This document shows, piece after piece, positions 2,988 to 25,739 of a stretch of 64,000 bases of DNA. Numbering within the stretch: position 1 is the stretch's first letter; the number at the start of each line of letters is the position of its first letter. The notes under the pieces are model-generated. The model had not been told where the DNA came from and did not search any database. It worked only from the letters and a program-made list of their open reading frames with translations. The DNA lies in contig JAGWOI010000008.1 of assembly GCA_028870995.1 (NCBI GenBank), forward strand, positions 3,468-67,467. The letters run 5' to 3'. Position numbers and translations under genes: made by a program. This DNA comes from Candidatus Omnitrophota bacterium. GTDB taxonomy: Bacteria > Omnitrophota > Gorgyraeia > Zapsychrales > Fredricksoniimonadaceae.

Positions 2988-3111
2988 ACTTATCCGGTTA
3001 ATAATATAAAATTAGCTTAAAAAGCTATTGCTGGCATAGGTTTTTGGGTTAGAATAAATTAATATTTAAGATTTAAATATCCCTTAAATCCCCAAAAAAT
3101 TAAGGATTTTA

Positions 3112-6281: not shown

Positions 6282-7610
6282 ATGAGAATTGCCATCATAG
6301 GTTCAGGTTACGTGGGTTTGGTTTCCGGGGTGTGTCTGGCCGAAATCGGGCACCATGTTGTCTGTGTGGACAATAATCCCGATAAGATCAGGACTTTGAA
6401 GAAAGGCAAGCTGCCTATTTATGAACCGGGGTTGCTGGAGCTCATGAAAGCCAATGTCGCCAAAAAGCGGCTTTCTTTCACCGGTTCCATCGGCGAGGCC
6501 ACAGAAAAATCGCAAGTCATTTTCCTGGCGGTGCCGACCCCGCCTAAGGCCAACGGGGACGCGGATTTGACCTATATCGAGAACGTGGCCCGCCAGATCG
6601 CCCAGCACATGGATTCCTACAAATTGATCGTAGAGAAATCCACCGTCCCCGCGGAGACCGGCAAGAAGATCAGGCGTACCATTCATTTGAACCTGCCTAA
6701 GAAGTATAAAAGCGGCAATAAAATCCTGCTGGATTTCGACGTGGCCTCTAACCCCGAGTTCCTCAAAGAAGGCAGCGCGGTGCATGATTTTATGAACCCG
6801 GACCGTGTTGTCATCGGTGTCGAGAGCAAAAAGGCGGAACAGTTGTTGAAGGAAATTTACAAGCCGCTGAAGGCCAAGGTCCTGGTCACCAACATTGCCT
6901 CGGCTGAAATGATCAAGCACGCCTCAAATTCATTTTTGGCCGCCAAGATCTCCTTTATCAACGCCGTGGCCCAGATCTGCGACCGGGTGGGCGCGGACGT
7001 GCTCAAGGTGGCGGAGGGCATGGGGCTGGACAAGCGCATCGGCCGTCAGTTTCTCGACGCAGGCGTCGGCTACGGCGGCAGCTGCTTTCCCAAAGACGTG
7101 GATGCCTTCATCCGGGTCGGTGAAAAGAGTGGTTATGAATTTGCCCTGCTTAGGGAAGTGCGGCGCATCAATGAGGCCCAGCGCCATTGGTTCGTGCGCC
7201 ATATCGAGGAAAAGCTTTGGAATATCAAGGACAAGATGATCGGCGTCTGGGGCCTGGCCTTCAAGCCAAATACCGACGATATCCGCAGCGCCGCGGCCCT
7301 TGAGATCATCCAGCTTTTGCAGGCGGAAGGGGCCAGGATACGGGCCTATGACCCCAAAGCCATGGACAACGCCAGGAAGGTCTTAAGCCGGAACACGGTT
7401 TTTTGCGACAGTCCTTATGCGGTGGCGGAAGGTTGCGATTGCCTTTTATTGCTGACCGAATGGCCGGAATTTGCGGATATCGATTTCGTCCAGATACGCG
7501 ACGCGATGAGCCAGACCGTGATCTTCGACGGCCGCAATTTTCTGGACGGGACGGCCTTAAGGGATTTGGGCTTTGAATACTTCGGCGTTGGCCGGGGAAA
7601 ATCTTTGTAA
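6282..7610 (+). CDS. ugd: UDP-glucose 6-dehydrogenase
   Basis: The Rossmann motif '[16 protein letters not shown]' is present. The catalytic Cys region is 'GGSCFPKDV'. The length (442 aa) is typical. Confidence 0.9.
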
Positions 7611-7625
7611 AAGGATAAGGAGTGA

Positions 7626-8585
7626 ATGATGCCTAAGAAAACAGTACTGATTACAGGCGGAGCGGGCTTTATCGGAAGCCATCTGTGCGACCGGTTCATC
7701 AAGGAAGGCTTTAAAGTCATTGCCGTCGACAACCTGATCACCGGCAACAAGGGCAACATTGCGCACCTGGCCAAGAACAAGGACTTCCGGTTTATCAAGC
7801 ACGATATTTCCAAACCTATCCGGATACCGGGGCAGGTCCATTATGTGCTTCATTTTGCCTCGCCGGCATCACCCATCGATTATCTGCAGCTTTCCATCCA
7901 GACCATGAAGGTCGGTGCCCTGGGCACGCATAACGCATTGGGGATCGCCAAGGCCAAGAAAGCGGTCTTTTTCCTGGCCTCCACCTCGGAAGTTTACGGC
8001 GACCCCCTGGAACATCCGCAAAAGGAAACCTATTGGGGCCATGTCAATCCCATCGGGCCCAGGGGCGTGTACGACGAGGCCAAGCGCTTTGCCGAGGCCC
8101 TGACCCTGGCTTATAAAAAGGTGCACGGGATGGATGTCAAGATCATCCGCATTTTCAATACCTATGGGCCGCGCATGCGGCTTAAGGACGGAAGGGTGGT
8201 CCCCGCATTCATTGACCAGGTCCTTCACGGCAAACCTTTGACGATCTTCGGCGACGGCAGGCAGACCAGGTCTTTTTGCTATGTGGATGATCTGGTCGAG
8301 GGCATCACCCGGCTTTTGTTCTCCAAATTGACCGGTCCGGTGAACATGGGTAATCCCCGCGAGTTCACCATTCGCCAATTTGCCGACCTGGTCGTCAAAA
8401 CCCAGGGGGGCCATAAGGCCAGGATTGTTTTTAAGCCCTTGCCCAAGGATGACCCCAAGCAGCGCCGGCCGGATATCACCCAGGCCAGGACGAAACTGGG
8501 ATGGGAACCGAAGGTCCGCCTGGAAGAAGGGATCGTCAAGACGATCGCCTATTTTAAAGAACACATCAACAATGGACGAAAATAA
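7626..8585 (+). CDS. uxs: UDP-glucuronate decarboxylase (UXS-type SDR). An ArnA-C-terminal-like 4-keto-forming decarboxylase cannot be excluded.
   Basis: '[17 protein letters not shown]' and '[12 protein letters not shown]' are present, with the typical YxxxK. It lies adjacent to ugd. Confidence 0.8.
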
Positions 8586-9196
8586 TGATTACCAAGGAAG
8601 AATTGGTTGCTTTTGAAATGGATATCGCCGAGGTCTTCGCGACCGGCGTTATTCGTGCTCCGGTGCACCTGCGGGCGGGCCGGGAAGAGATGCTCATCAA
8701 AATCTTCAAGGACCATCATATCGGCGACGATGATTACGTGTTCGGTTTTTGGGATTCCCATGAGCTGGCACTTTTGAAGGGCGTGCCGCCCCAGGAATTG
8801 AAACAAGCCATCCTGGACGGCAAAAGCATATCGCTGTGTTTCCCTCAATACAAGGTTTTGTGTTCGGGGATCGTGGGCAGCCTGATGGGCGCCGCCGCCG
8901 GGGTGGCCTGGGCCCTGAAGCATCAGCAGCAAAAGGGCAGGGCTTTTTTGTTTTGCGGGGACATGTCCTCGGAGACGGGTATTTTTCATGAAGCGGTCAA
9001 ATATGTTACTAATTTCGACCTGCCCGCCGTCTTTATTGTCTGTGACAACGGGGTCAGCGTCATGACCGACACCCGCGCCGCATGGGGAAGCTCCGACCCC
9101 TGGTTTAAAGGCACCAAGTACGAAAGCAAGATCATCTATTTTAAATACACCAACGGCTACCCGCATTCCGGCCTTGGTAAACTCATCAAATTTTAA
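8585..9196 (+). CDS. TPP-dependent dehydrogenase E1 component, alpha-like subunit (short form)
   Basis: The ThDP-binding region reads 'FCGDMSSETGIFHEAVKYVTNFDLPAVFIVCDNG'. At 203 aa it is much shorter than a canonical E1 alpha. Confidence 0.6.
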   Translation: MITKEELVAFEMDIAEVFATGVIRAPVHLRAGREEMLIKIFKDHHIGDDDYVFGFWDSHELALLKGVPPQELKQAILDGKSISLCFPQYKVLCSGIVGSLMGAAAGVAWALKHQQQKGRAFLFCGDMSSETGIFHEAVKYVTNFDLPAVFIVCDNGVSVMTDTRAAWGSSDPWFKGTKYESKIIYFKYTNGYPHSGLGKLIKF

Positions 9197-9200
9197 AACT

Positions 9201-9788
9201 ATGACGACCAATACACAGCTTAAATACTTCGATGAATTAAAAAGGACCATGGAATGGCTGGCCCAGCAGCCCAAGGTGATGTTTGTGGGACAGACGGTGG
9301 CCGGACCCGGCACCTTTATGTACCAGACCCTGCGCGACTGCCCCAAGGAACGCTGCCTGGAGATGCCCATCAATGAAAGTTTCCAGATGCAGTTTACGAT
9401 AGGGCTGGCCCTGACCGGCTATGTGCCCATTTCGGTTTATCCTAGGCAGAACTTTTTGCTGCTGGCCACTGGAGATATGGCCAATATGCTTGACAAGATC
9501 CCCTTGATCTCCGGGGGGAAATGGCCGTTGAAAATGATCATCCGGGTGGCCACCGGTCCCGATGCGCCGGTGCATCCGGGACACCAGCATATCGGCAATT
9601 ATGCCAAGGCCTTCCGGGAAATGTTCAAATGGATTGAGGTGGTGGAGCTTGACAGCGCCGAGGAGATCTTCCCGGCCTACAACCAGGCCTTGAACCGCAC
9701 GGATGGCAAATCGACGATGATCATCGAGCACGGGAATTTCTATAACGAAGAATATTACGCCAAGCGGATGATCAGCACCCAGCGCTGA
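9201..9788 (+). CDS. TPP-dependent dehydrogenase E1 component, beta-like subunit (transketolase pyrimidine-binding domain only)
   Basis: 'KVMFVGQTVAGPGTFMYQTLRD...ERCLEMPINESFQMQFTIGLALTGYVPI' resembles an E1 beta or transketolase Pyr domain. The C-terminal domain is absent. It is paired with the alpha-like gene. Confidence 0.55.
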   Translation: MTTNTQLKYFDELKRTMEWLAQQPKVMFVGQTVAGPGTFMYQTLRDCPKERCLEMPINESFQMQFTIGLALTGYVPISVYPRQNFLLLATGDMANMLDKIPLISGGKWPLKMIIRVATGPDAPVHPGHQHIGNYAKAFREMFKWIEVVELDSAEEIFPAYNQALNRTDGKSTMIIEHGNFYNEEYYAKRMISTQR

Positions 9789-9792
9789 AGGT

Positions 9793-10719
9793 ATGCATCG
9801 TAATTCCAGGATATTTATCGTCGGACACAACGACAGCATTGAAAATTCCCTTAAAAGTTATTTTCAAGCCAAGGGCTTTCGCCATGCTGTTTCCAATACC
9901 CAGGACCGCATTAATGTGCTGGACCAGCTGCAGGTGGAGAAATTTTTTAAGAGTTTCCGGCCGGAATATGTTTTTTTAGGCTCCGTTCGTTCCGGCGGCA
10001 TTATCGCCAACCAAAAATTCCCGGCGGAATTTATTTATGAAAACCTGCAGGCGCAGAGTTTGGTCATTGACGCCGCCCGGGTGGCTCAGGCTAAAAAGTT
10101 ATTATATTTTTCCAGTTCTTGCGCCTACCCGGCCCTGGCCAAACAACCGATCCGGGAAACGTCTTTATTGACGGGAGCGCTGGAATCTACCAGCGAGGCC
10201 TATGCCGTCGCCAAAATAGCCGGCATTAAAATGTGCCAGGCCTACCGCGCCCAATACGGTTTTAAGTCCGTTGTGGCGGTGCCGGCCACGCTTTACGGTC
10301 CGGGCAGCGACACGGACATGGAATCCGCCCATGTGCTGGGTGCCTTGACGGCTAAATTCCATAAGGCCGCCGCCGAAGGCAACGGCGAGGTGGCGGTTTG
10401 GGGTTCAGGCCGTCCCCGGAGGGAATTCCTTTATGTGGACGACTTTGTCAGCGCCTGTGTGTTTTTAATGGAAAAGTACGACGGGCAGGAACCTGTCAAT
10501 ATCGGCTGCGGTCATGATGTGCCCATCAGGCGATTGGCCCAAATGCTCAAGAAGGTCAGCGGCTTCAAGGGGAAGATCATCTTCGATGCCTCCAAACCCG
10601 ACGGGGTGATGCGTAAACTTCTGGACAGCAGCCGCCTGCGCAGGCTGGGCTGGAGGGCGAAGGTGGGTCTGGAAGAAGGCATTGAAAAAACCTACCGCTG
10701 GTATGTAAAAAATTTATGA
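9793..10719 (+). CDS. GDP-L-fucose synthase family (Fcl/WcaG-like) sugar-nucleotide 3,5-epimerase/4-reductase
   Basis: 'YFSSSCAYPALAKQPIRETSLLTGALESTSEAYAVAKIAGIKMCQAYRAQYG...ATLYGPGSD' aligns with Fcl, and the catalytic S/C/Y/K residues are retained. The N-terminal Gly-rich NADP motif is degenerate ('IFIVGHNDSIENS'). Confidence 0.75.
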   Translation: MHRNSRIFIVGHNDSIENSLKSYFQAKGFRHAVSNTQDRINVLDQLQVEKFFKSFRPEYVFLGSVRSGGIIANQKFPAEFIYENLQAQSLVIDAARVAQAKKLLYFSSSCAYPALAKQPIRETSLLTGALESTSEAYAVAKIAGIKMCQAYRAQYGFKSVVAVPATLYGPGSDTDMESAHVLGALTAKFHKAAAEGNGEVAVWGSGRPRREFLYVDDFVSACVFLMEKYDGQEPVNIGCGHDVPIRRLAQMLKKVSGFKGKIIFDASKPDGVMRKLLDSSRLRRLGWRAKVGLEEGIEKTYRWYVKNL

Positions 10720-11939
10720 GCATCAGGCGCAAATGGCTGTGGGGACTGCTCGCAGCGGTCGTTTTTACCGGGCTTTTAGGCAGGTATTTGGACAGGGTGC
10801 CCAAACGGCATTATTGCGATTTTCGCGTGTATCATCATGCGTCCGTAAGGATGGCGGCCGGGGAGGACATTTATGTCCGCGATACCATGGCGGTAACACC
10901 GTTTAAGTATTCGCCTTTTTTTGCTTTTTGTTTTATTCCCTTAGGGCTTTTGCCCATCAAAATTGCCGCGGGCCTGTTTTTTGCTCTTAATTTTATTCTG
11001 ACCATCGTTTTATTCCGCCTGGCGGCGGATATTGCTGAAGTAAGGGCCGCCGCGGCCCGGGCCGGCGCCCTGCCGCTGCTTTACGGGTTGGCGGTTTTAT
11101 TTTCAGCAAGGTTTATTTTCCTGGTCTGGGATTCAGGCCAGGTCAATATTTTAATGTGTGTCCTGGTGCTGGCCGGTTTGATGTTGGTCTCCAAGGGTAA
11201 GGATATGCCGGCAGGGGCCTGCCTGGCCGCAGCCATATTGATTAAATATGTACCGGCCGTTTTCTTGCCGTACCTGCTTCTTCAGAAAAAGTTTAAAGCG
11301 GTTGCGTGGACCTTGGCTTTTTTGGTCATTGGACTTGTATTGCCGTCGATGGTGGTGGGAGTCCAGAAAGACATTTCTTATTTGGGCTCATGGCTGCCCT
11401 TTATTACGCAAACGTCGCTGGACAAATTATCATATATCGACATCAAAAACCAATCCTTGTTTTCGATGGTCATCCGGTCCTTCAGCGCCAGCGGCATGGG
11501 CGTCAACATCATGCATTTGAGTTTTGAGCAGGGAAAGATCCTGGGGATTGCCATTTCAGCGCTGCTTTATGCGCTGGTGTTGGTTAAGGGGAAAAGACAA
11601 CCGGGACAGGCGGGGCTTGATGCGGCCCTGCTTTTTTGCTTTATGGCTCTTTTTAATCCCAATGGGTGGGAGCTGAACTTTGTGGCTTTGGGATTGCCGT
11701 ATATATTATTGATTGGATATTTAATTGAGGTAAAATGGAAAGACTCCTTTGTGACAATGAGCGTTATAATGGCAGCGGTGCTAAGCTCTGTTTTTGCCAG
11801 GGACGTCCTCGGCAAGGTCATGGAGAATGACAGCAATCTATGCAGCAATGTAACGATCGCGACGTTGCTTTTAATTGCCGCATTGTTTCAACTTAAATTT
11901 CTAAAGATTAAATCTATTAATGGAAAGGAAGTAGTATGA
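10716..11939 (+). CDS. Polytopic membrane protein, DUF2029/GT87-like putative glycosyltransferase
   Basis: It has at least 9 predicted TM helices. The N-terminal loop 'DFRVYHHASVRMAAGEDIY...PFKYSPFFA' is similar to DUF2029 (GT87 mannosyltransferase-like) proteins. Confidence 0.5.
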   Translation: MSIRRKWLWGLLAAVVFTGLLGRYLDRVPKRHYCDFRVYHHASVRMAAGEDIYVRDTMAVTPFKYSPFFAFCFIPLGLLPIKIAAGLFFALNFILTIVLFRLAADIAEVRAAAARAGALPLLYGLAVLFSARFIFLVWDSGQVNILMCVLVLAGLMLVSKGKDMPAGACLAAAILIKYVPAVFLPYLLLQKKFKAVAWTLAFLVIGLVLPSMVVGVQKDISYLGSWLPFITQTSLDKLSYIDIKNQSLFSMVIRSFSASGMGVNIMHLSFEQGKILGIAISALLYALVLVKGKRQPGQAGLDAALLFCFMALFNPNGWELNFVALGLPYILLIGYLIEVKWKDSFVTMSVIMAAVLSSVFARDVLGKVMENDSNLCSNVTIATLLLIAALFQLKFLKIKSINGKEVV

Positions 11940-12868
11940 AGATTTTAGTGACAGGAGCAGCAGGGTATATCGGTTCCATTTTGGTGCCGCGTCTGTTGGC
12001 CGAAGGGCATGAAGTCATTGCACTTGACAACTTTATGTACAACCAATCTTCTTTGCTGGATGTCTGTTACCATGACCGCCTGACCATCGTGCGGGGCGAC
12101 ACCCGTGACAAGGCCCTGATGACCCGGCTCATGAAGGACGCCGACGCTATTTTTCCTCTGGCCTGCCTGACCGGGGCGCCTCTATGCGCCAAGGATCCCG
12201 TCGGTGCACAGACCATCCTGCTGGATGCCGTCAACATGATCCTGCAGTTGCGAAGCCGGGATCAAAGGGTCATTTTTCCCACCACCAACAGCGGCTACGG
12301 GATCGGGGAGAAAGGCAAGCACTGCACGGAAGAAACCCCGTTACGCCCCATTTCCTTGTACGGGAAATTAAAAGTCGAAGCGGAGAACGCCATCCTCTCT
12401 GCCGGCAACGGGATAACCCTTCGCCTGGCCACGGCTTTTGGGGTTTCCCCGCGCATGCGCCTGGATCTCTTGGTCAATGATTTCACCTACCGGGCCGTGT
12501 ACGACCGGTTCGTGATCCTGTTCGAGGCCCATTTCAACCGCAATTACATCCACGTGCGGGACATCGCCAAGGCTTTTATCCACGCGTTGAATAATTTTGA
12601 CAAGATGAAGAACCAACCCTATAATGTCGGCTTAAGCGACGCTAATTTAACCAAACTGCAATTATGCCAGGAAATTAAAAAACTCGTCCCCGATTTTTAT
12701 TTTGTGGAAGCCACCATCGGCGAGGACCCCGATAAGCGTGACTACATCGTCAGTAACGAAAAGATCGAAAAGACCGGCTTCAAACCTGATGTTTCCCTTC
12801 AAAAAGGTCTACAGGAATTGATCAAAGGGTATCAAGTCATCAAGCGTAACCAATTTGCCAATATTTAA
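11936..12868 (+). CDS. NAD-dependent epimerase/dehydratase (extended SDR)
   Basis: 'MKILVTGAAGYIGSILV' is a Rossmann motif and YxxxK is 'YGKLK'. It sits inside the glycan cluster. Confidence 0.75.
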   Translation: MKILVTGAAGYIGSILVPRLLAEGHEVIALDNFMYNQSSLLDVCYHDRLTIVRGDTRDKALMTRLMKDADAIFPLACLTGAPLCAKDPVGAQTILLDAVNMILQLRSRDQRVIFPTTNSGYGIGEKGKHCTEETPLRPISLYGKLKVEAENAILSAGNGITLRLATAFGVSPRMRLDLLVNDFTYRAVYDRFVILFEAHFNRNYIHVRDIAKAFIHALNNFDKMKNQPYNVGLSDANLTKLQLCQEIKKLVPDFYFVEATIGEDPDKRDYIVSNEKIEKTGFKPDVSLQKGLQELIKGYQVIKRNQFANI

Positions 12869-12874
12869 AAGCCT

Positions 12875-15369: not shown

Positions 15370-15386
15370 CGGGAAATAGGAAGGAT

Positions 15387-17292: not shown

Positions 17293-17296
17293 GGGC

Positions 17297-18394
17297 ATGC
17301 GCATTGCCATCAATTGCAGGTCCGTTCTCATGGCCCGGCGTACGGGGATCGGACGGTATACTTACAATTTGCTTGAAAGTTTAGGCAAAATCGATAAGGC
17401 CAATGAGTATATCCTTCACGCCCCCCGGTCCTTGTTCGATTTCAAGCGCCGCCTGCCGGACTTCTCAAAATATAAGAACCTAAGGAAATATCCTGATTAT
17501 TTCAAGCGGGGGGTCAACAGGTGTGATGTTTATCATTTTCCCTGCCTGGATGATGTCAGTTCCTGTACGGGAAAGCTCATCGTCACCATCCACGATTTTG
17601 TTTATAAAACCTTTGCTCAGACACACACACCGCAGGCCGTTGAATACTTAGAAAAGCATATGCGCTTGGTGACTTCCAGGGCTGACCGCATCATTTGCAT
17701 TTCTGAGAATACCCGCAAGGACCTGCATACTTTCTTTGATATCCCCGAACACAAGTCCTGTGTTGTCTACAACGGTGTCGACCATAATAATTTTTATCCT
17801 TTGTCTGCCGCCGAGGACGGCCGGGCCGGCCATGAGCTTAGGCAGCTGGGCATTGACCGGCCTTATGTGTTGTATGTGGGCACCATTGAACCGCGCAAAA
17901 ATCTTCATGGCTTGCTAGAGAGTTTTGCGTTGCTCAAGTCGAGAAAAGCTTTTTCGGGAGTACTGGTCGTTGCCGGGATGAAGGGATGGATGATGTCTGA
18001 TGTGGGTGAAAGGATCAAGAAATTAGGAATTGAACAGGATGTAATTTTTACAGGTTTTATTAGCGACGAAACCTTACGGCTGCTTTATAATAGGGCTGAG
18101 GTTTTCGTTTTCCCTTCTTTATATGAAGGATTTGGGTTTCCTATCCTGGAGGCTTTTTGCTGCGGCACCGCGGTGGTCACCTCTTCGACGTCTTCCTGCG
18201 GTGAAGTGGCAGGGGAAGCGGCGCTGAAGACTGATCCACTGGAGCCCAAGTCCATCGCCAAGGCCATGGAACAGGTGGTGGCCGACCCGGTCCTCAAGAA
18301 ATCCCTTCGTGAGGCTGGCCTGAAGCGTGCCCGGGAGTTTTCCTTCTTAACCATGGCCCAAAGGACCCTGGATGTTTATCGAAAGATTATCTAA
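17297..18394 (+). CDS. Glycosyltransferase family 1 (GT4)
   Basis: 'EPRKNLHGLLESF' and 'FVFPSLYEGFGFPILEAFCCGTAVVTS' are present. The long ORF from 17057 is an overlap artefact, so the start is set at ATG 17297. Confidence 0.8.
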   Translation: MRIAINCRSVLMARRTGIGRYTYNLLESLGKIDKANEYILHAPRSLFDFKRRLPDFSKYKNLRKYPDYFKRGVNRCDVYHFPCLDDVSSCTGKLIVTIHDFVYKTFAQTHTPQAVEYLEKHMRLVTSRADRIICISENTRKDLHTFFDIPEHKSCVVYNGVDHNNFYPLSAAEDGRAGHELRQLGIDRPYVLYVGTIEPRKNLHGLLESFALLKSRKAFSGVLVVAGMKGWMMSDVGERIKKLGIEQDVIFTGFISDETLRLLYNRAEVFVFPSLYEGFGFPILEAFCCGTAVVTSSTSSCGEVAGEAALKTDPLEPKSIAKAMEQVVADPVLKKSLREAGLKRAREFSFLTMAQRTLDVYRKII

Positions 18395-20018
18395 AGCTCT
18401 TCAAGCCCCGTGCCGGCCCCAAGACCTTTTTTTATTGTTCTTGTGGTCAGTGCTGGTGCTTTGGTGGCCGTCATACCTGCACCAGGAACTGAACCTGTTT
18501 GAATGGGGGCTTTACCTGCCCGGCATTGACGCCGTATCCCATGGACTGGTGCCTTACAGGGATTTCTTTCATTTGCGAGGCCCCTTCGAGTTGTACGCGC
18601 CCGCACTGTTCATGAAAATATTCGGTTTCAGGGCCGATGTCCTGGCCGCCTATTTTTATCTGGGCACGGTCCTGACCATCCTGGTATCCATTTTAATCGC
18701 TTATGAACTGATTCCCTCCCGGGCTTTACTGTATTCTTTCGTCTTCATTCTGATCACCCGGACCTTTCCGCGTTCAGTTTTTACTTTCTGGGGAGGGTTG
18801 CGTTATGTATGGGGATTGTTGGCGGTATGGTGCCTGGTGCGCTTCCTTAAAACTAAACGTCCCGGTTGGCTTATGGCAACAGGGTTTTTGGCCGCGATCG
18901 GCGGGGGCACGAGCATTGAGATCGGGGTCATCAGTGTGTTGGCTTTTATAGCGGTCATGGTTTTTGTCCGTGAATACCGGCGGTGGGCCTGGGCATTTTT
19001 GTCCGGGTTCCTGGTAGTCTGTATACCTTATAGCCTGTACCTATTAAGCCAAAATGCCTTTATACCCTATGTCCAGGCTCAGTGGGTGGTGGTGACCCAC
19101 ATGCAAAAAACTTTTTATCAATTAGGGCCGGTACCGGATACCGTGCCCAGATTCCTGCATGCCATGATTTTCCCCTTGGATAAGAATTTTTATAAGGTGA
19201 CGCCTATTTACTGTTATATATTCTTTTTCCCGTTTTATTTTCAGCGCCTGTTTCATAAAAGAGCCGCGCCTCTGGACCATGCGGCCTTGGCGGTCGCGGT
19301 ATATGGGCTGGGCATTTTTTTGACGGGATTCCGTCTGGTGGGGGGGCCTGTTTATGAAATGTCTTTGCAGCCTGAGAAAATAGTTTTGTTTTACTTGTGG
19401 GTGCAAGCTGTCGGCTGGATACGGCAAAAGTATCCTGGATTCAAATGGACCGGGGCCGCGCTGACAGCGGTGGTTGTATTGTCATCCTGCATCTATACCA
19501 TCGGCCGCTTTAAAACGAGATTTTATAAACCTTCCTGGGTCTGTCAATTGATCCAAGATAAGAATAAGGGAAAACAGGAATTGGTCAACGGCCAGCCGGC
19601 TGCGCCTATTGATTTGCCCCGCATCCGCCATATGACCGTGCCCGTATGGCAGGCCAAGGATTTAGAGGAGCTGAGCCGTTTCGTCAATGAACACGTGCCT
19701 GCGCATCAGGCCATATGGATGTATCCGGAGCTTGGCAGCTTGAATTTTATACTCATGAGACCCTGGGTGGGCCGTTTTCCCGTGGCTACGCTGTCCTGGA
19801 TGGATGACGCTTGGTTTGCCGAATATGAGAGCGTCCTCAAAAGTAATCCTCCTAAATTTGCCATTGTCAACAAGGTGATGGCGGACTGTTTTAATAAAGT
19901 CTATTTCTTAGTGCCGGCCAATCGCGTCAAACACGAGAGCATCATGCGATTCCTGAATAAGCACTACAGGATTGTTTATCAAACACCGAGCTATTTTGTA
20001 TACCGGTTTGCGGGTTAA
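18372..20018 (+). CDS. Large polytopic membrane protein; possible GT-C-type glycosyltransferase or polysaccharide polymerase
   Basis: It is 548 aa with at least 10 hydrophobic segments and an N-terminal loop 'YRDFFHLRGP'. No confident family assignment can be made from sequence alone. Confidence 0.4.
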   Translation: MFIERLSKALQAPCRPQDLFLLFLWSVLVLWWPSYLHQELNLFEWGLYLPGIDAVSHGLVPYRDFFHLRGPFELYAPALFMKIFGFRADVLAAYFYLGTVLTILVSILIAYELIPSRALLYSFVFILITRTFPRSVFTFWGGLRYVWGLLAVWCLVRFLKTKRPGWLMATGFLAAIGGGTSIEIGVISVLAFIAVMVFVREYRRWAWAFLSGFLVVCIPYSLYLLSQNAFIPYVQAQWVVVTHMQKTFYQLGPVPDTVPRFLHAMIFPLDKNFYKVTPIYCYIFFFPFYFQRLFHKRAAPLDHAALAVAVYGLGIFLTGFRLVGGPVYEMSLQPEKIVLFYLWVQAVGWIRQKYPGFKWTGAALTAVVVLSSCIYTIGRFKTRFYKPSWVCQLIQDKNKGKQELVNGQPAAPIDLPRIRHMTVPVWQAKDLEELSRFVNEHVPAHQAIWMYPELGSLNFILMRPWVGRFPVATLSWMDDAWFAEYESVLKSNPPKFAIVNKVMADCFNKVYFLVPANRVKHESIMRFLNKHYRIVYQTPSYFVYRFAG

Positions 20019-20022
20019 GAAC

Positions 20023-20862
20023 ATGAAGATCAGCGGTTTTACCATAGTCCGCAATGCGGTCAAATTCAATTATCCGGTTGTGGCTTCCATCCGTTCGATC
20101 CTGCCTATTTGTGACGAGTTTATCGTTAATGTGGGGGACAGCGAGGACGGCACCCTGGATTTGATCCGCTCGATCGGCAGCCCTAAGATCCGTATCATCC
20201 AAAACCGCTGGGACATGGGCCGCGGGTCCCAGGTGCTCTCCGAGCAGACCAACCTGGCGTTAAAAGAATGCCGGGGCGACTGGGCTTTTTATCTGCAAGG
20301 GGATGAGGTCATCCACGAGCAGGATTTAAACAAATTGAAGTTTTGGATGCGTTATTATTTGGACCGGCAGGAGGTGGATGCCCTGCGGTTCAAGTGGCTT
20401 CACTTTTACGGCTCTTTCTGGCGTTACCGTATCGACGCGGGCTGGTATCAAAAGCAGGAGAGGATCATCCGCAACAATGGACAGATCGAATCCTGCGGGG
20501 ACGCCTTCAGCTTCAGGCGTGTCGACGGCGGGAAATTAAGGGTGCGTCCGGTCTTCTGTTTTCTTTATCATTACGGCTGGGTCAATTCCAGCGAAGACAT
20601 GCGTCGGCGATGCGCCAACGCGGCTGAGATCGGTTTTATGGATAAGGACAAGAATAATTCTTTAGACGGTGGGTATGGCGACCTGGGGCGTTTTCCCTCG
20701 TATTTCGGCACGCACCCGTCCGTCATGCATGAGGCTGTGCAAGGGCATCGGCTGAGCCAGGAGGACTTTGGCCATATCCGCAGGGACTCTTGGTGGAATC
20801 CGTTTTTTTGGATGCGGCTGCGGCATAAAACCGGGCAGAGGGTCAAAGAGAAAATCGTTTAA
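20023..20862 (+). CDS. Hypothetical protein, possibly a GT-A-fold glycosyltransferase
   Basis: The N-terminus 'MKISGFTIVRNAVKFNYPVVASIRSILPICDEFIVNVGDSEDGT' resembles family-2-like GTs. The acidic motif is 'LQGDEV'. Confidence 0.4.
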   Translation: MKISGFTIVRNAVKFNYPVVASIRSILPICDEFIVNVGDSEDGTLDLIRSIGSPKIRIIQNRWDMGRGSQVLSEQTNLALKECRGDWAFYLQGDEVIHEQDLNKLKFWMRYYLDRQEVDALRFKWLHFYGSFWRYRIDAGWYQKQERIIRNNGQIESCGDAFSFRRVDGGKLRVRPVFCFLYHYGWVNSSEDMRRRCANAAEIGFMDKDKNNSLDGGYGDLGRFPSYFGTHPSVMHEAVQGHRLSQEDFGHIRRDSWWNPFFWMRLRHKTGQRVKEKIV

Positions 20863-20875
20863 GAACAGGTCGTAT

Positions 20876-22183
20876 ATGGATACCAATAAAGGTTTTGATT
20901 TCGGATGCGGCTGCGACAAGGTGGTGTTCTTTGCCTTTTGCGCCCTGATTTACTTTTTGCCCATTTCCATTGCCTTGACGGATACGTTTGCCGCACTGGC
21001 AGTGTTTTTCTATCTCCTGAAGAAAATCCACGGGCTTGTCCTTGCATGGCCAGCTCCGGGTAACAGGCTGTTTGATAAAATAAAATATACCGCCCGGGGT
21101 ATGGCCCCGGCACCCAGCATCCTGAAGCGCCCCATCGCCATCCTGGCGCTGGTGACCTTCCTGTCCGTCCTCCAAAGCCAGTTTTTAGGGGTAAGTTTTT
21201 ATGCATTTGGCGGGAAATTCTTAAAATATATATTCATCTATTTCAGTTTTGTCGAAACCTTCGTTACTCCCAAGCGGATGAAAGTTTTTGTGTGGGTTTT
21301 TTTGATTTCCGCGTTTCTTGTTTGCCTCAGCGGAGTGGCCCAGCATATCTACGGGGTGGACTTCTTGGCAGGGCGGCATTTGGCCCCGGACGGCAGGCTT
21401 TCGTCATCGTTTAAATTTCCCAACAGTTTGGGGATTTATCTGGTCGTGGTGCTGGCTGTTGTCGTTCAGCAGTTGTATGTCGAGAGTTTGAGAAAAAGGT
21501 TTTCGTGGACGCTGGGCGGATTGCTTATTTTATTGTTCCTCGCGATGTTCTGCATGACCTGGACCTTTTCCCGTGCGGCCTGGGGGGGATTTATGCTGTC
21601 CCTCTTCTTCCTGATGTTCACCGGCCGGGGCAAGATCCTTTATTTGGTTCTTCTATTGGGGCTTTTTCTGTCCTTCTCCCTGCCGCTTTTGGGCGAAATC
21701 CGGCATGTGGATTTGACGTCAAACAGTCTTCCCCATTTGGGCAATCCTTTTAATTCGATCGGGCATTTCGAAAGCATCGACCGCATCAATTTTTGGAAGA
21801 GCGCCATCTTTATCATCAAAAAATATCCGGCCCTGGGCAGCGGCTTAAATACCTATGCGCTGATGTTAAAGAAATTCTCCCTGCCTAACTGGTATGCCCA
21901 TAACGGCTACCTGCAGATCGGCGCTGAAACCGGACTCGTAGGACTGTCCTGCTTTTTATGGATGTTGTTCGTATTGTTCCGTCAGGGGATCAAGGGGATT
22001 GGCATCGGCATGGGCTCGTGGTCGAACATTCTGCTCCAGGCTGGCCTGGCTGGTTTATTGGGATTCTTAGGAGAGAGCTTTTTCGATAACTCCCTGGTCT
22101 CTGTCCAGTTGGCGGTTTTATTTTGGCTGATGACGGGTTTCACCGTGGCCGTCCTGAATTTAAACAATAAGAATGAAGGCTGA
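20876..22183 (+). CDS. O-antigen ligase/polymerase family (Wzy_C domain) membrane protein
   Basis: It has multiple TM helices. 'WTFSRAAWGG' and 'AHNGYLQIGAETGLVGL' are typical Wzy_C motifs. Confidence 0.7.
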   Translation: MDTNKGFDFGCGCDKVVFFAFCALIYFLPISIALTDTFAALAVFFYLLKKIHGLVLAWPAPGNRLFDKIKYTARGMAPAPSILKRPIAILALVTFLSVLQSQFLGVSFYAFGGKFLKYIFIYFSFVETFVTPKRMKVFVWVFLISAFLVCLSGVAQHIYGVDFLAGRHLAPDGRLSSSFKFPNSLGIYLVVVLAVVVQQLYVESLRKRFSWTLGGLLILLFLAMFCMTWTFSRAAWGGFMLSLFFLMFTGRGKILYLVLLLGLFLSFSLPLLGEIRHVDLTSNSLPHLGNPFNSIGHFESIDRINFWKSAIFIIKKYPALGSGLNTYALMLKKFSLPNWYAHNGYLQIGAETGLVGLSCFLWMLFVLFRQGIKGIGIGMGSWSNILLQAGLAGLLGFLGESFFDNSLVSVQLAVLFWLMTGFTVAVLNLNNKNEG

Positions 22184-23250
22184 TGGATTACCGCAAGATC
22201 CTTATCATCAATCCCTACGGCATCGGGGATGTTTTATTCACCACCCCCGTCATTAGAAATCTGCGTTTGGCGTTTCCCAAAGCTGCGATCGGTTACCTGG
22301 CCAATGCACGGACGGCCAGCTTCCTTAAAGCCGATGGCGATATAACCCGTGTTTTTGTTTATGAGCGCGACGAATTTGTCCAAGCCTATCGCCAGAATCC
22401 CTTAAAATTTGCGCGCAAGTGGTTTGAGCTTTTTCAAACCATTAAACAGGAGGCCTTCGACCTGGCCCTCGATTTTTCCATGAACAGCACCTTCGGATTT
22501 CTGACAGCAGCCTGCGGGATCAAGGAACGGGTTGGGTTCGATTATAAGAAACGCGGCCGGTTCCTGACTGACCGTCTTCCTTTTGAGGGTTACCAAGGGA
22601 AGCATGTCATCGAACACCAGTTGGATTTGCTGCGCTATTTGCAGATACCAGTGGCGACCAATCGCATGAGCCTCGCCATCCCTTACGGAGACATCCAATG
22701 GGCCCGCCAATGGGTCTTGCAGCAGGGTATCGACTCATCCAAACCTTTGATAGGGGTGGTACCGGGCGCCGGCGCCAGTTGGGGCAAAAACGCCGGGTTT
22801 AGGCGGTGGGCTGGGTCTAAATATGCAGAATTATTGGATAAAATTATTGAAAATTTCGACGCTGCCGTTATACTGATGGGAGATTCAACCGAACAAGAGT
22901 TGTGCAGGGACCTTGCCGTTCAAGTGCATTTTCCGCTTTATTCCGCCACAGGCCAAACCACTTTGACCCGTATGGCGGCGTTGATGGCGCGATGCCGCTT
23001 AGTCCTCGTCAATGACGGAGGGCCCTTGCATGTGGCGGTGGCCTCGGGCGTCAAGACTGTTTCCATTTTCGGCCCCCAAGACCACTTGATTTACGGCCCT
23101 TATCCTGCACAAGGCCATGTGGTGGTCAGGAAAGAGTTGCCGTGCCAGCCGTGTTACCGGCGGTTCCGCATGGCCCGCTGCGAACACATCAATTGTTTGA
23201 AAGAATTATCCGTCGAAGAAGTTTATAGAAAGGTTGCCGACATCCTATGA
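22183..23250 (+). CDS. Glycosyltransferase family 9 (ADP-heptose:LPS heptosyltransferase-like)
   Basis: The N-terminus is 'KILIINPYGIGDVLFTTPVIRNL'. The C-terminus 'VLVNDGGPLHVAVASGVKTVSIFGP' is typical of RfaF/RfaC. Confidence 0.8.
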   Translation: MDYRKILIINPYGIGDVLFTTPVIRNLRLAFPKAAIGYLANARTASFLKADGDITRVFVYERDEFVQAYRQNPLKFARKWFELFQTIKQEAFDLALDFSMNSTFGFLTAACGIKERVGFDYKKRGRFLTDRLPFEGYQGKHVIEHQLDLLRYLQIPVATNRMSLAIPYGDIQWARQWVLQQGIDSSKPLIGVVPGAGASWGKNAGFRRWAGSKYAELLDKIIENFDAAVILMGDSTEQELCRDLAVQVHFPLYSATGQTTLTRMAALMARCRLVLVNDGGPLHVAVASGVKTVSIFGPQDHLIYGPYPAQGHVVVRKELPCQPCYRRFRMARCEHINCLKELSVEEVYRKVADIL

Positions 23251-24347
23251 GTATTCCCTTCATTGATTTCAGAGAACAGAACCGCCTGATCGCCGCCGAG
23301 GTCGATACGGGCTTTAAGAAAGTATTTGAAAAAGGCGACTATATTCTGGGCGAACAGGCCCGTCTTTTTGAGGAGGCTTTCGCCCGTTACTGTGAAGCCA
23401 AACATGGCGTGGGCGTCAATTCGGGCACCGACGCGCTGCACCTGGCTTTGCTGGCGCTTGGCATCGACGAGAACGATGAAGTGATCCTGCCCACGCATAC
23501 CTTTATCGCCACGGCTTTGTGCGTCTCTTTCTGCCGGGCCAAGCCGGTCTTCGTGGATGTCGAACCGGACACTTATAACATCGATCCCGAAGCTTTCCGC
23601 AAGGCGATCACCAAGAAAACCAAGGCGGTTATCCCCGTACATATTTACGGCCAGCCGGCCAATATGGATGAGATCACCTCCATCGCCCGCGAGCACGGTA
23701 TCAAGGTCGTCGAGGACGCCGCTCAAGCGCACGGCTCCCGGTATAAGAACCGCAGGGTGGGATCATTGGGCGATGTGGCGTGCTTTTCTTTTTATCCCAC
23801 CAAGAGCCTTGGCGCTTGCGGGGATGCAGGCATGATCGTCACCAGCGATAAGGGGATTTATGAAAGGGCCCTGATGCTGCGCGATTATGGCCGCCAGGGC
23901 CGGTACGAGCATAAAATCAAGGGCACTAATTCCCGCCTGGATACGATCCAAGCGGTGATCCTTAACGCCAAGCTGAAACATTTGGACCAATGGAACCAGA
24001 TGCGCGCCAAGAATGCGGCTGCCTATGCGGAGCTTTTAAAGCCTTTGAAGGATGTGGTGGCGCCGGTGACCAAGCCGGACCGCACGCACGTCTTTCAGAC
24101 CTATGCCGTTCTTGTCCCTAACCGCGACAAGGTGATGGAGGCCATGAAGGCCCAAGGCATTGGCGTGCTGATCCATTATCCCATCGGTTTGCATTTGCAG
24201 GAGGCCTATGCGGAATTGGGTTATAAAAAAGGAGATTTCCCCGTGGCTGAGAAGGTGGCGGATCAGGTCATGAGCCTGCCCATGTTTCCCCATATGACCA
24301 GGGAACAGGTTGAGACGGTGGTGGCAGCTTTGAAAAAATCTTTATAA
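23247..24347 (+). CDS. DegT/DnrJ/EryC1/StrS-family sugar aminotransferase (canonical Lys)
   Basis: 'FSFYPTKSLGACGDAGMIVT' and 'VIPVHIYGQPANMDEI' are present. Confidence 0.85.
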   Translation: MSIPFIDFREQNRLIAAEVDTGFKKVFEKGDYILGEQARLFEEAFARYCEAKHGVGVNSGTDALHLALLALGIDENDEVILPTHTFIATALCVSFCRAKPVFVDVEPDTYNIDPEAFRKAITKKTKAVIPVHIYGQPANMDEITSIAREHGIKVVEDAAQAHGSRYKNRRVGSLGDVACFSFYPTKSLGACGDAGMIVTSDKGIYERALMLRDYGRQGRYEHKIKGTNSRLDTIQAVILNAKLKHLDQWNQMRAKNAAAYAELLKPLKDVVAPVTKPDRTHVFQTYAVLVPNRDKVMEAMKAQGIGVLIHYPIGLHLQEAYAELGYKKGDFPVAEKVADQVMSLPMFPHMTREQVETVVAALKKSL

Positions 24348-24348
24348 C

Positions 24349-25155
24349 ATGGCCCCTTTAAGTGTCGTCATCATCGCCAAGAATGAAGCCGGCCGCATCA
24401 AGGACTGCATCGAAAGTGTGCATGAATGGGCCGATGAGATCGTGGTGATCGACGATGAGAGCACCGACAACACCCGCGCCATTGCCTTGAAATACACTCC
24501 GGCCATTTACAGCCGCCGGATGGAGCTGGAGGGCAAGCAGCGTAATTTCGCCGCCTCACAGGCCAAGAACGACTGGATCATGCTCTTGGACTGCGATGAG
24601 CGCCCGACCCCGGAGCTTAAGGAAGAGATCGCGGCGGTGCTTAAAGAGCCGGATCCTAAGATCGCCGCCTATTGGGCGCCGCAGATCAATTATTTGGGCG
24701 ACATGCCGCTGCTGCACGGCGGATGGTCGAGCCCGCATATTCGTTTGTATAACAAGAATCGCATGTCATGGTCGGAAGCGGTTTATGATGTCATCCATCC
24801 GGGCATCAAGACCAAGGAAGGCTTCCGCGGAGGCCATTTGAAATCCGCCACCATCCATTATAGTTTCCGTAATGTCGAGGACCTGGTGGCCAAGATCAAC
24901 CGGTATTCGACCATGGAAGCCTTCAAGTGGTACATGGACAAACGGGATATGCCTTTGATCAAGGCTTTGTGGCGCGCCTGGGACCGTTTTTTCCGGAGAC
25001 TCGTTGCTAAAAAAGGTTACAAGGACGGTTATTTTGGTTTCGTGGCGGCGGTGGTCAGCAGTTTCAATGAGTTGGCGGTTTACAGCAAGTACAGGGAAAT
25101 GAAGGAAAAGGGACATTACCTGGACCGGTTTAAAGCCAAGGGCCTGATAGCATGA
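24349..25155 (+). CDS. Glycosyltransferase family 2 (WaaE/KdtX-like LPS core GT)
   Basis: 'LSVVIIAKNEAGRIKDCIESV...EIVVIDDESTDNT' and the DxD-like 'LDCDE' are present. Confidence 0.75.
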   Translation: MAPLSVVIIAKNEAGRIKDCIESVHEWADEIVVIDDESTDNTRAIALKYTPAIYSRRMELEGKQRNFAASQAKNDWIMLLDCDERPTPELKEEIAAVLKEPDPKIAAYWAPQINYLGDMPLLHGGWSSPHIRLYNKNRMSWSEAVYDVIHPGIKTKEGFRGGHLKSATIHYSFRNVEDLVAKINRYSTMEAFKWYMDKRDMPLIKALWRAWDRFFRRLVAKKGYKDGYFGFVAAVVSSFNELAVYSKYREMKEKGHYLDRFKAKGLIA

Positions 25156-25739
25156 AGGTCGTTTTTTTGGACAGAGACGGGGTCATCAACAAATTCCCGG
25201 GCAACGGCGCCTATGTGACCAAGGTCAAGGATTTTCATTTCATCCCCGGCTCCGTCGAAGCTATCCGGGATTTGACCCAAAGCGGGCATAAAATTTTTGT
25301 CATCTCCAACCAGGCCGGTGTGGGCAAGGGGGTTTACTCACGGCACAAACTCCAGCGCATCGACGCCAAAATGATCAAAGGTGTCGAAAAGGCCGGCGGC
25401 AGGATCCGCAAAAGCTTTTATTGCACCCATCGTTCCGACGCCGGCTGTGATTGCCGCAAGCCCGGCATAGGGATGCTTAAAAAAGCCTTGAAGTCCCTCA
25501 ACAAGACCATTGCCCACGCCCAGAAGGCCTTTTTCGTCGGCGACACCGAGGGAGACATCAAGACCGGGCATAATGCCGGTTGCAAGACCATTTTTGTGCT
25601 TTCAGGCCGGGAAAACCGCCGGTACATGCGCAAGTGGACCGTCAAACCCGATCATATCGTCAAGGATTTGAAGGCCGCCGCTTCGATCATTCAACATGCG
25701 AATTCTAATCATTCACGCAACAGCCGGCGCGGGGCATAA
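25152..25739 (+). CDS. gmhB: D-glycero-D-manno-heptose 1,7-bisphosphate phosphatase (HAD-IIIA)
   Basis: 'VVFLDRDGVIN' is HAD motif I. 'VISNQAGV' is present. The zinc-binding region is 'CTHRSDAGCDCRKP'. 'VGDTEGD' is present. Confidence 0.8.
   Translation: MKVVFLDRDGVINKFPGNGAYVTKVKDFHFIPGSVEAIRDLTQSGHKIFVISNQAGVGKGVYSRHKLQRIDAKMIKGVEKAGGRIRKSFYCTHRSDAGCDCRKPGIGMLKKALKSLNKTIAHAQKAFFVGDTEGDIKTGHNAGCKTIFVLSGRENRRYMRKWTVKPDHIVKDLKAAASIIQHANSNHSRNSRRGA

Follow-up and report, generated by a model that had tools for sequence, protein, structure and literature searches.

A glycan operon of an Omnitrophota bacterium and a widespread gene module that probably makes a 3-deoxy, carbon-branched heptose

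The 64-kb stretch of Candidatus Omnitrophota DNA analysed here (the window, positions 1-64000) contains a block of closely packed genes at 6282-26784, all on the + strand and separated by intergenic gaps of -44 to +17 bases according to the open reading frame (ORF) calls. The + strand also carries all ORFs from 3112 to beyond 29441. The block is bordered by an LptD-like gene upstream and by priA followed by fmt downstream and, because of this tight co-directional packing between the LptD-like gene and priA/fmt, it is an operon-like unit in a lipopolysaccharide (LPS) setting. Gene families were assigned with Pfam, NCBIfam and comparison with solved structures (PDB), and these searches recovered all the families that an earlier note on this DNA had listed. 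A nine-gene core module within the block probably converts an activated seven-carbon sugar to a derivative that lacks the C3 hydroxyl and bears a carbon branch. The genes assigned to steps of this conversion are the following.

8585..9196, + strand: truncated E1 alpha-like subunit binding thiamine diphosphate (ThDP), PP domain only, 203 amino acids (aa); Pfam E1_dh
9201..9788, + strand: truncated E1 beta-like subunit, Pyr domain only, about 196 aa, ATG start at 9201; Pfam Transket_pyr
9793..10719, + strand: Fcl-like short-chain dehydrogenase/reductase (SDR) with the GDP-fucose-synthase fold; E = 8e-88 to E. coli GDP-fucose synthase
11936..12868, + strand: SDR, homologue of a Cj1427-type GDP-heptose C4-dehydrogenase; PDB 6VO6, E = 3e-119
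12875..14389, + strand: radical S-adenosylmethionine (SAM) enzyme with a B12-binding domain; Pfam B12-binding 57.7 bits, Radical_SAM 60 bits
14386..15369, + strand: HddA-like GHMP sugar kinase; NCBIfam HddA 146 bits, PDB 3k85 6e-37
15387..16115, + strand: HddC-like sugar-1-phosphate nucleotidyltransferase, probably a guanylyltransferase; NCBIfam HddC 140 bits, PDB 5xhw 1e-37
16105..17292, + strand: DegT-family protein with His for the pyridoxal phosphate (PLP)-binding Lys, predicted C3-dehydratase; alignment to perosamine synthetase
25152..25739, + strand: GmhB-like heptose 1,7-bisphosphate phosphatase; NF006506 159.7 bits, 88% identical in the related Omnitrophota locus L001

The two E1-like proteins share the cofactor-binding features of ThDP enzymes in a much reduced form. 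The alpha-like protein matches E1_dh over profile positions 7-177 of 300 and keeps the ThDP/Mg motif GDM-x26-DN, in which G125, M127, D154 and N155 are at least 95% conserved among 117 homologues. The beta-like protein consists of Transket_pyr with no Transketolase_C domain in Pfam, and the cofactor-activating Glu of its PINE motif is at least 95% conserved in 110 homologues. Omnitrophota homologues of the alpha-like protein are 80-88% identical to it, canonical pyruvate dehydrogenase (PDH) E1 alpha proteins only about 30%. An exhaustive search of 1.84 billion cluster representatives retrieved 278 clusters (50% identity level, E <= 1e-10); among the best 150 of these 278, full-length members are mostly about 200-250 aa long, and many shorter entries are fragments. 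Among its members are two proteins of about 400 aa in which alpha and beta are fused, two that carry inteins and one joined to an APH-type kinase domain (P0278, P0288, P0351, P0328, P0345). When plasmids were searched by tblastn with the E1 alpha-like protein of Herbaspirillum, the only matches were canonical pdhA-type genes of about 30% identity, and no cassette appeared. The truncated pair forms its own family. Because the parts used by canonical E1 to work with E2 are absent, it is likely a stand-alone carboligase or decarboxylase.

The genomic context of this pair was surveyed with a degenerate DNA pattern derived from the ThDP motif, which matched once in the window and not at all in shuffled copies of it. 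Scanned over one genome per species, it identified at least 120 loci, which were taken as 8-kb blocks and compared with the window proteins by tblastn, blastp and ORF calling. The earlier note knew of no description of this gene combination as one locus; the combination is not unique to the window and forms a cassette found in many phyla. The taxa listed, as given by the record titles, are Omnitrophota, contigs labelled 'Planctomycetales', Pelagibacteraceae, SAR116, Verrucomicrobiota, Nitrospira, Betaproteobacteria, Actinomycetota, Acidobacteriota-type metagenome-assembled genomes, Bacteroidetes, Elusimicrobia, Gemmatimonadetes, Parcubacteria, Saccharibacteria and Woesearchaeota. Two of the betaproteobacterial carriers, Herbaspirillum sp. 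NPDC101397 and Massilia sp. LXY-6, are in culture.

Partners of the E1 pair can be counted in the 88 distant loci listed, defined by an E1 alpha 38-50% identical to that of the window. The His-type DegT accompanies the pair in 56 of them and the HddA-like kinase in 53, followed by the Cj1427-like SDR (39/88), the HddC-like transferase (35/88), the Fcl-like SDR (32/88), the radical SAM enzyme (31/88) and a GmhA-like SIS protein (18/88). A DegT gene directly follows E1 beta in 42 of the 62 listed loci with a recognised following gene, and the kinase gene directly precedes E1 alpha in 35 distant loci. The Herbaspirillum locus (L070) has the typical cassette order, with ten genes in 8 kb: radical SAM, kinase, Fcl-like, E1 alpha, E1 beta, His-DegT, nucleotidyltransferase, GmhA-like, Cj1427-like and GmhB. 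This co-occurrence and order in distant loci indicate that the E1 pair belongs to the heptose module. Ugd (UDP-glucose 6-dehydrogenase) and UXS (UDP-glucuronate decarboxylase), which the earlier note had listed for the block, fall outside the conserved module and are its neighbours only in the Omnitrophota clade: Ugd occurs in 0 of the 88 distant blocks, and the ORFs labelled 'UXS' in 10 of the 88 are 19-33% identical to the window UXS, those examined resembling Gmd/RmlB-type or other SDRs.

Two further loci bear on the substrate of the ThDP pair. The Bacteroidetes locus L080 consists of Gmd, Wzt, E1 alpha, E1 beta, an SDR, an Fcl-like gene, His-DegT and a NUDIX gene, with no kinase, isomerase or other heptose genes in the block, and Desulfatiglandales L093 of Wzm, Wzt, Cj1427-like, E1 alpha, E1 beta, an SDR, Fcl-like and His-DegT. 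What stays with the ThDP pair in these loci is thus an enzyme that generates the 4-keto group (Gmd or Cj1427-like) together with a 3-dehydratase, and the apparent hexose version in L080 points to 3-deoxy-4-keto GDP-sugars as the compounds to which the pair is tied. Some SAR11 and Parcubacteria cassettes also carry a Gmd/RmlB-like SDR, a potential 4,6-dehydratase (L056 973-3187, L089 655-1620, L033 3325-4347), and in L056 a nucleotidyltransferase is fused to GmhB. The pathway may therefore have a 6-deoxy version in those lineages.

Within Omnitrophota the arrangement is well preserved, beyond what chance would give. The loci L001, L002 and L004 share the order Ugd, UXS, E1 alpha, E1 beta, Fcl-like, Cj1427-like, radical SAM, kinase, nucleotidyltransferase and His-DegT, followed by GT4 and GT2-like glycosyltransferase (GT) genes; L001 and L002 continue with GT9, Lys-DegT, GT2, GmhB and the MGDG-synthase-like gene, and L001 then with priA. 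Proteins from Omnitrophota contigs are mostly 60-90% identical to those of the window (70-88% for the E1 pair, His-DegT and radical SAM enzyme), and hundreds of homologues of His-DegT and of the E1 alpha-like protein lie at 76-88% identity. In the close clade (32 loci listed) UXS is present in 27 and Ugd in 18, with UXS directly upstream of E1 alpha in 25. The GT87-like and Wzy_C genes vary among relatives. The site occupied by GT87 in the window, between the Fcl-like and Cj1427-like genes, holds an insertion sequence-type transposase (rve) and an unknown ORF in L001 (3138-5253) and nothing in L002 and L004. Defence-type genes are inserted into the glycan operon of L004, from groundwater: a nucleotidyltransferase/HepT toxin-antitoxin pair separates E1 alpha from E1 beta (2815-3616), and DarT/Macro, SLFN-like helicase and MazG-like genes follow the GT2-like gene (15975-21179).

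The enzymes of sugar activation point to a heptose. HddA is the best NCBIfam model for the kinase (cutoff 600 bits), which matches the solved heptose kinases 3k85, 4n3o and 4usk at 6e-37 to 4e-33, and HddC is the best model for the nucleotidyltransferase (cutoff 300), whose match 5xhw is the HddC of the Yersinia 6-deoxy-manno-heptose pathway. Galactokinase and RmlA models score far below these; the placement in such subfamilies that the earlier note had raised as a counter-indication did not occur in the profile searches. The third protein approaches the GmhB model NF006506 (cutoff 178) and exceeds the cutoffs of HAD-IIIA subfamily models. In the Herbaspirillum cassette the GmhB reaches 181 bits, above the cutoff, and is accompanied by a GmhA-like protein with 188 bits to NF010546. 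The proposed heptose nucleotide-sugar route is upheld by the subfamily placement of the two activating enzymes together with the GmhA and GmhB of related cassettes.

The gene at 11936-12868 had been recorded in the earlier note simply as an extra SDR. It is indeed one, keeping the Tyr-x3-Lys signature (YGKLK, aligned with YGIDK of 6VO6), and it can now be identified by its 59% identity to 6VO6 over 307 of 310 residues. The PDB names this entry "putative sugar-nucleotide epimerase/dehydratease". It corresponds to Cj1427, since the peptide RAFKMMKV encoded by a published Cj1427 primer (PMC3546167) is present in the 6VO6 chain. Cj1427 is a GDP-heptose C4-dehydrogenase, whose tightly bound NADH is recycled by alpha-ketoglutarate (PMC10680097). 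Together with the PLP-dependent C3-dehydratase of serotype HS:5, it converts GDP-heptose in vitro to GDP-D-glycero-3-deoxy-4-keto-heptose (m/z 616.08), a product obtained by combining enzymes of different Campylobacter jejuni serotypes (PMC10680097).

The Fcl-like SDR scores 381 bits with the NCBIfam Fcl model (cutoff 500). It keeps the E. coli residues Ser107/Tyr136/Lys140 and the epimerisation pair Cys109/His179 (in SSSCAY, YAVAK and SAHV), and these catalytic Ser/Cys, Tyr/Lys and His residues are retained in the close clade and in distant cassettes alike. Its NADP(H)-binding loop GxxGxxG is degenerate, GHNDSIENS against GHRGMVGSA of E. coli. The form GH[ND]DSIENS is found throughout the clade of Omnitrophota and 'Planctomycetales'-labelled contigs (window 9793-10719; L001 1909-2832), and distant cassettes have AGHAGLIGSA. 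In the Omnitrophota clade the protein may be an epimerase only, or may bind its cofactor in another way.

Profile and PDB comparisons revealed no Gmd/DmhA-type 4,6-dehydratase in this locus or in L001, L002 and L004. UXS, considered as the missing enzyme, was ruled out by its 1e-105 match to human UXS1. The SDRs of the locus are UXS, the Fcl-like protein and the Cj1427-type protein, and the route to a 3,6-dideoxy sugar through a GDP-heptose 4,6-dehydratase, as put forward in the earlier note, is therefore not supported. The absence of such an enzyme among the SDRs, which that note had named as damaging to its proposal, is real, but the 4-keto group would be supplied by the C4-dehydrogenase homologue instead. 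Since a different enzyme would provide this group, deoxygenation at C3 is still feasible and deoxygenation at C6 by the 4,6-dehydratase route is not. Because a 4-keto sugar of the Cj1427 type keeps its C6 hydroxyl, a 6-hydroxy 3-deoxy-heptose is predicted rather than a 3,6-dideoxy one.

Replacement of Lys by His at the PLP-binding site is the hallmark of ColD/E1-type sugar 3-dehydratases, which depend on pyridoxamine phosphate. In alignment, the DegT protein at 16105-17292 has His at the Schiff-base Lys of perosamine synthetase (FSLYAAHIVTT against FSFFGNKIITT). The same residue is present in 62 of the 67 DegT ORFs covering the site in the related loci listed, which is consistent with the ColD/E1-like 3-dehydratase suggested in the earlier note. 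Four of the five Lys forms are orthologues, in Omnitrophota contigs, of the operon's own Lys-type DegT (23247-24347), to which the His-type protein is 34% identical; the sole Lys-type DegT of a cassette is that of L088. The His-type protein is 100% identical to one from a Candidatus Omnitrophica metagenome-assembled genome, its Omnitrophota homologues are 76-87% identical, and the DegTs of distant cassettes are RfbH-like. As no E3-like flavodoxin or ferredoxin-reductase gene is present in the locus or in L070, a ColD-like, glutamate-driven mechanism would be the better fit. The predicted dehydratase function is argued from the hallmark residue and its context, not from close homology.

The remaining enzyme of the module combines an N-terminal B12-binding domain with a radical SAM core, the architecture of class B (cobalamin-dependent) methyltransferases, and its CxxxCxxC cysteines (C226, C230, C233) are invariant. 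NCBIfam ranks HpnJ (143 bits), BchE and AprD4 above the methylase models, all far under cutoff. A profile of 16 orthologues compared with the PDB gave AprD4 (2e-22), the unnamed entry 9ccb (7e-19), TsrM (9e-11), OxsB (2e-8) and TokK (9e-7). The closest characterised relatives are thus not methylases, AprD4, the nearest named solved relative, being a diol dehydratase; a B12-dependent methylase role, as the TsrM and TokK matches would allow, is one of several options. The gene is mostly found with the heptose version of the cassette and once with a Gmd-like SDR (L033). Dehydration of a 6,7-diol, C-methylation and a rearrangement are candidate reactions, each held with low confidence.

Taken together, these assignments suggest the following pathway. 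An HddA/HddC/GmhB-type route would supply GDP-heptose, with GmhA provided from outside the window. The Cj1427-like SDR, judging from its identity to the characterised enzyme, would oxidise C4, and the His-type DegT would then remove the C3 hydroxyl to give GDP-D-glycero-3-deoxy-4-keto-heptose. By analogy and gene context, the two-subunit E1-type enzyme could decarboxylate a 2-oxo acid, most simply pyruvate, and add the acyl anion to the C4 ketone, in the manner of YerE in the yersiniose pathway, to leave a tertiary alcohol with a 4-C-acyl group. The Fcl-like SDR would epimerise or reduce, and the radical SAM enzyme would alter the heptose further, for example by dehydration or methylation of the 6,7-diol side chain. 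The product would then enter a core or O-chain-like glycan through the action of the neighbouring GT4 or GT-C-like transferases. The GT4 gene, which directly follows His-DegT in L001 and is separated from it by one or two genes in L002 and L004, is the simplest candidate for this transfer. Ugd, UXS, the Lys-type DegT, GT9, GT2 and Wzy_C would contribute to other residues of that glycan. The likeliest product is a GDP-activated 3-deoxy-heptose with its C6 hydroxyl intact and an acyl group added at C4 by the ThDP pair, altered further by the radical SAM enzyme.

The conversion of the heptose to its 4-keto and 3-deoxy-4-keto forms is considered likely. An even chance is given to branching at C4 by the ThDP pair, for which the 4-keto generator and 3-dehydratase as partners, and YerE and KbDH as precedents, make the carbon-branching role proposed in the earlier note plausible. 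The conserved cofactor residues of both E1 subunits and of the radical SAM enzyme are signs of functional proteins. The whole sequence, from GDP-heptose to a C4 acyl branch in an LPS-type outer-membrane glycan operon, is likewise regarded as about evenly balanced between right and wrong.

Several observations weigh against this pathway. The kinase, nucleotidyltransferase and GmhB are all under their NCBIfam equivalog cutoffs. No SIS-domain (GmhA) ORF is present in the ORF chain of the window, and none was found within 10 kb in L001, L002 and L004; this isomerase must be encoded elsewhere in the organism. The best PDB matches of the His-type DegT are aminotransferases (7b0m 1e-65, perosamine synthetase 5e-63), closer than ColD and E1 (3-dehydrase) at about 1e-44 to 1e-45, and the protein, 30% identical to the His-type DegT of a distant cassette (L070 3910-5079), is no nearer to it than to the Lys-type DegT of its own operon, so that the exchange of Lys for His either happened twice or was maintained through a replacement of the gene. 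Because the NADP(H) glycine loop is lost in this clade, the Fcl-like protein is not assignable as a reductase. With 203 and about 196 aa, the E1 subunits are much shorter than Pau11/12 (325 and 345 aa), with which they are compared by reported length; in Omnitrophota their genes directly follow UXS, and a pentose acceptor would fit too. The roles of the DegT, the E1 pair and the radical SAM enzyme are all assigned by homology only. Finally, absences within related loci, being absences from 8-kb blocks, are weak evidence.

The ThDP pair might instead act early, like transketolase, DXS or the lincomycin transaldolase LmbR, and build the sugar-phosphate backbone of a GDP-octose or an unusual heptose. 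In lincomycin biosynthesis HddA/GmhB/HddC homologues activate an octose, and an early role would also suit the position of E1 alpha directly after the kinase gene in the 35 distant loci, the APH-type kinase fusion and weak matches to DXP_synthase_N. It is nevertheless thought unlikely: the pair of L080 occurs with Gmd and His-DegT and no sugar-phosphate genes within the 8-kb block, the 3-dehydratase is the most constant downstream neighbour of the pair, and the GmhA-like and GmhB-like proteins of the cassettes score at or near heptose-specific cutoffs.

Two further explanations carry a small probability each. In one, the ThDP pair would act on UDP-4-keto-xylose from UXS to give a eurekanate-like, C4-branched pentose, and the heptose genes would form a separate pathway. 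The contiguity of Ugd, UXS, E1 alpha and E1 beta in the window, and the position of UXS directly upstream of E1 alpha in 25 of 32 close-clade loci, speak for this; the 88 distant loci listed, which are without a close UXS homologue or Ugd and in which heptose kinase and His-DegT flank the pair, speak against it. The everninomicin model does pair a UXS-type decarboxylase, EvdS6, with a PDH-like heterodimer, as a hypothesis only (PMC10338323). The window UXS is very close to the xylose-forming human UXS1, which also weighs against this explanation. According to the literature, release of a 4-keto product is not readable from sequence or structure.

In the other, the locus would make only an epimeric, unbranched heptose as in C. 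jejuni HS:2, and His-DegT, the E1 pair and the radical SAM enzyme would be unrelated or inactive. The Cj1427-like and Fcl-like proteins do match the HS:2 logic of C4 oxidation, epimerisation and reduction, and the homology-based assignments of the other enzymes leave room for it; this explanation is improbable in view of the conservation of those enzymes across Omnitrophota with their cofactor motifs, their synteny with heptose genes in many phyla and the loss, in the Fcl-like protein of this clade, of the NADP(H) loop that a reductase needs. Least probable of all, and very doubtful given the SDR complement of the locus and of L001, L002 and L004, is the route first proposed, in which a 4,6-dehydratase, a C3-dehydratase and an epimerase/reductase would make a 3,6-dideoxy-heptose as in C. 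jejuni HS:5, even though His-DegT and an Fcl-like protein are present, some SAR11 and Parcubacteria cassettes carry a Gmd/RmlB-like SDR and loss of a side-chain hydroxyl through a different mechanism is conceivable for an AprD4-like radical SAM enzyme.

The other genes of the block, with its upstream border, are listed below. Three of them lie beyond those named in the earlier note: the Lys-type DegT, the 548-aa GT-C-like protein and the GT28 gene.

4025..6268, + strand: LptD-like outer-membrane LPS transport protein (upstream border); Pfam LptD_N, with an LptD gene at the equivalent position in L002
6282..7610, + strand: UDP-glucose 6-dehydrogenase (Ugd); three UDPG_MGDP_dh domains, TIGR03026 482 bits, above cutoff
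7626..8585, + strand: UDP-glucuronate decarboxylase (UXS); E = 1e-105 to human UXS1 chains 4gll and 2b69, gmd model 43 bits
10716..11939, + strand: GT87-like polytopic membrane glycosyltransferase (variable gene); Pfam GT87, 101 bits
17297..18394, + strand: GT4 glycosyltransferase; Pfam Glycos_transf_1 and Glyco_transf_4
18372..20018, + strand: 548-aa polytopic membrane protein, GT-C-like; weak Pfam PMT_2, E = 5e-4, L004 counterpart matches PTPS_related
20023..20862, + strand: GT2-like (GT-A fold) protein; Pfam Glycos_transf_2 25.6 bits, cutoff 23.3, kept in L001, L002 and L004
20876..22183, + strand: Wzy_C family protein (O-antigen ligase/polymerase type); Pfam Wzy_C 57.6 bits, position variable among relatives
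22183..23250, + strand: GT9 heptosyltransferase-like protein; Pfam Glyco_transf_9 109 bits, TIGR02195 heptosyltransferase II 123 bits, cutoff 135
23247..24347, + strand: ordinary DegT aminotransferase, Lys kept; Pfam DegT 425 bits, motif FSFYPTKSLG
24349..25155, + strand: GT2 glycosyltransferase; Pfam Glycos_transf_2, 84 bits
25696..26784, + strand: MGDG-synthase/GT28-like glycosyltransferase, last conserved gene before priA; Pfam MGDG_synth and Glyco_tran_28_C, kept in L001 and L002

The GT9, GT2, Wzy_C and GmhB proteins, the LptD neighbour and the two GT-C-like membrane proteins would fit a glycan of core or O-chain type. Ugd, UXS, the Lys-type DegT, GT2 and the GT-C-like protein were also considered as an Arn system, which adds 4-amino-arabinose to lipid A. 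This reading was rejected: the decarboxylase is UXS1-like, with only 98 bits to the ArnA model, the ArnB score is 225 bits (cutoff 631), and the GT-C-like protein has only its weak PMT_2 match.

Over the whole window, all genes of the ORF chain are on the + strand and the cumulative GC skew climbs steadily. Outside the block, a tRNA-Phe gene (31582-31657) comes after two galactose-1-phosphate uridylyltransferase/HIT-like genes in tandem (29532-30533 and 30517-31521). A 2OG-Fe(II) oxygenase gene (31991-32629) adjoins one for an ELM1-family protein (32634-33587; Pfam Mito_fiss_Elm1, 302 bits), and the two may be a glycan-related pair. The C-terminal domain of inward-rectifier potassium channels (IRK_C, 86 bits) is found in a bacterial protein at 35506-36447. 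The region 38925-55207 contains a MarR regulator and then two resistance-nodulation-division efflux operons (39389-45072 and 46364-55207), with membrane-fusion protein, one or two AcrB-type pumps and outer-membrane factor.

In its most general form the proposal is that a widespread module contains a minimal PP+Pyr E1-type carboligase, unable to dock on E2, which acylates 3-deoxy-4-keto GDP-sugars at C4, and that its heptose version, with a side-chain-remodelling radical SAM enzyme, makes a new class of branched 3-deoxy-heptoses in Omnitrophota, SAR11, Nitrospira, Verrucomicrobiota, bacteria of the candidate phyla radiation (CPR) and Woesearchaeota. This is put forward tentatively, at somewhat less than even probability. 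Literature searches found no paper describing the cassette; an earlier bioinformatic mention is possible. If correct, the proposal would define a new sugar of natural origin, a heptose that is 3-deoxy and probably branched at C4, as well as the pathway to it, and would extend sugar branching by E1-type ThDP enzymes from actinomycete antibiotics to the cell-surface glycans of many phyla. The minimal E1 scaffold and a new sugar-acting radical SAM enzyme could be useful biocatalysts; these two unusual enzymes and the breadth across phyla are the main points of note. Carriers of the cassette include uncultured groups of very high abundance (SAR11, Nitrospira, Omnitrophota), in which surface glycans shape interactions with phages and grazers, and the two cultured carriers make the prediction directly testable.

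The closest known systems each share part of this logic. The pathways that modify GDP-heptose for the capsule of C. jejuni, with Cj1427, the HS:5 C3-dehydratase and C4-reductases, have in common with the module HddA/HddC/GmhB-type activation, a C4-dehydrogenase of the Cj1427 type, a His-type DegT and an Fcl-family SDR. However, the C4-dehydrogenase and C3-dehydratase are not naturally used together there, the clusters are without a ThDP or radical SAM enzyme, and the epimerases are separate enzymes; the module instead has the Fcl-like protein, whose NADP loop is degenerate. AprD4/AprD3, a radical SAM 1,2-diol dehydratase with its SDR reductase, and HpnJ act on sugar-like substrates; AprD4 is the closest solved relative of the radical SAM enzyme and HpnJ its best NCBIfam model. 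The similarity is far under family cutoffs and the AprD4 match spans the radical SAM core only.

In antibiotic pathways, keto-sugars are branched by enzymes of the E1 alpha/beta type, one of which, KbDH, has in vitro validation (PMC12247030, PMC4425429). The pairs AviB1/AviB2, Pau11/Pau12, EvdU5/EvdS3 and KbDH-alpha/beta (alpha-KADH2) are, like that of the window, two-subunit PDH-E1-like ThDP enzymes encoded beside keto-sugar-forming genes, and alpha-KADH2 enzymes add a two-carbon branch from pyruvate to C3 or C4 (PMC4425429, PMC12247030). These pairs are full length and belong to actinomycete secondary-metabolite clusters, whereas the present pair, in cell-surface glycan loci, is without the C-terminal part of E1 alpha and without Transketolase_C; it is set apart from alpha-KADH2 by reported lengths and domains. 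A 2025 review ascribes branching in LPS to YerE-type enzymes only, and E1-type branching to secondary metabolites.

YerE-like enzymes branch 3-deoxy-4-keto NDP-sugars at C4 in the yersiniose, erwiniose and caryophyllose pathways (PMC9306805). There, as proposed here, a His-type DegT provides the 3-deoxy-4-keto NDP-sugar, a ThDP enzyme acylates C4 and the product is an LPS sugar (PMC9306805). Those substrates are CDP-hexoses formed through a 4,6-dehydratase, unlike the GDP-type heptose and C4-dehydrogenase of the present module, and YerE and ErwE are single-chain enzymes of the acetolactate-synthase type, unlike the minimal two-subunit E1-type pair. Moreover, the E1 3-dehydrase of those pathways needs an E3 reductase and YerF carries out the reduction, whereas the module has no E3 and a radical SAM enzyme is added. 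This comparison suggests that the chemistry of the module is the yersiniose logic carried out with different enzymes.

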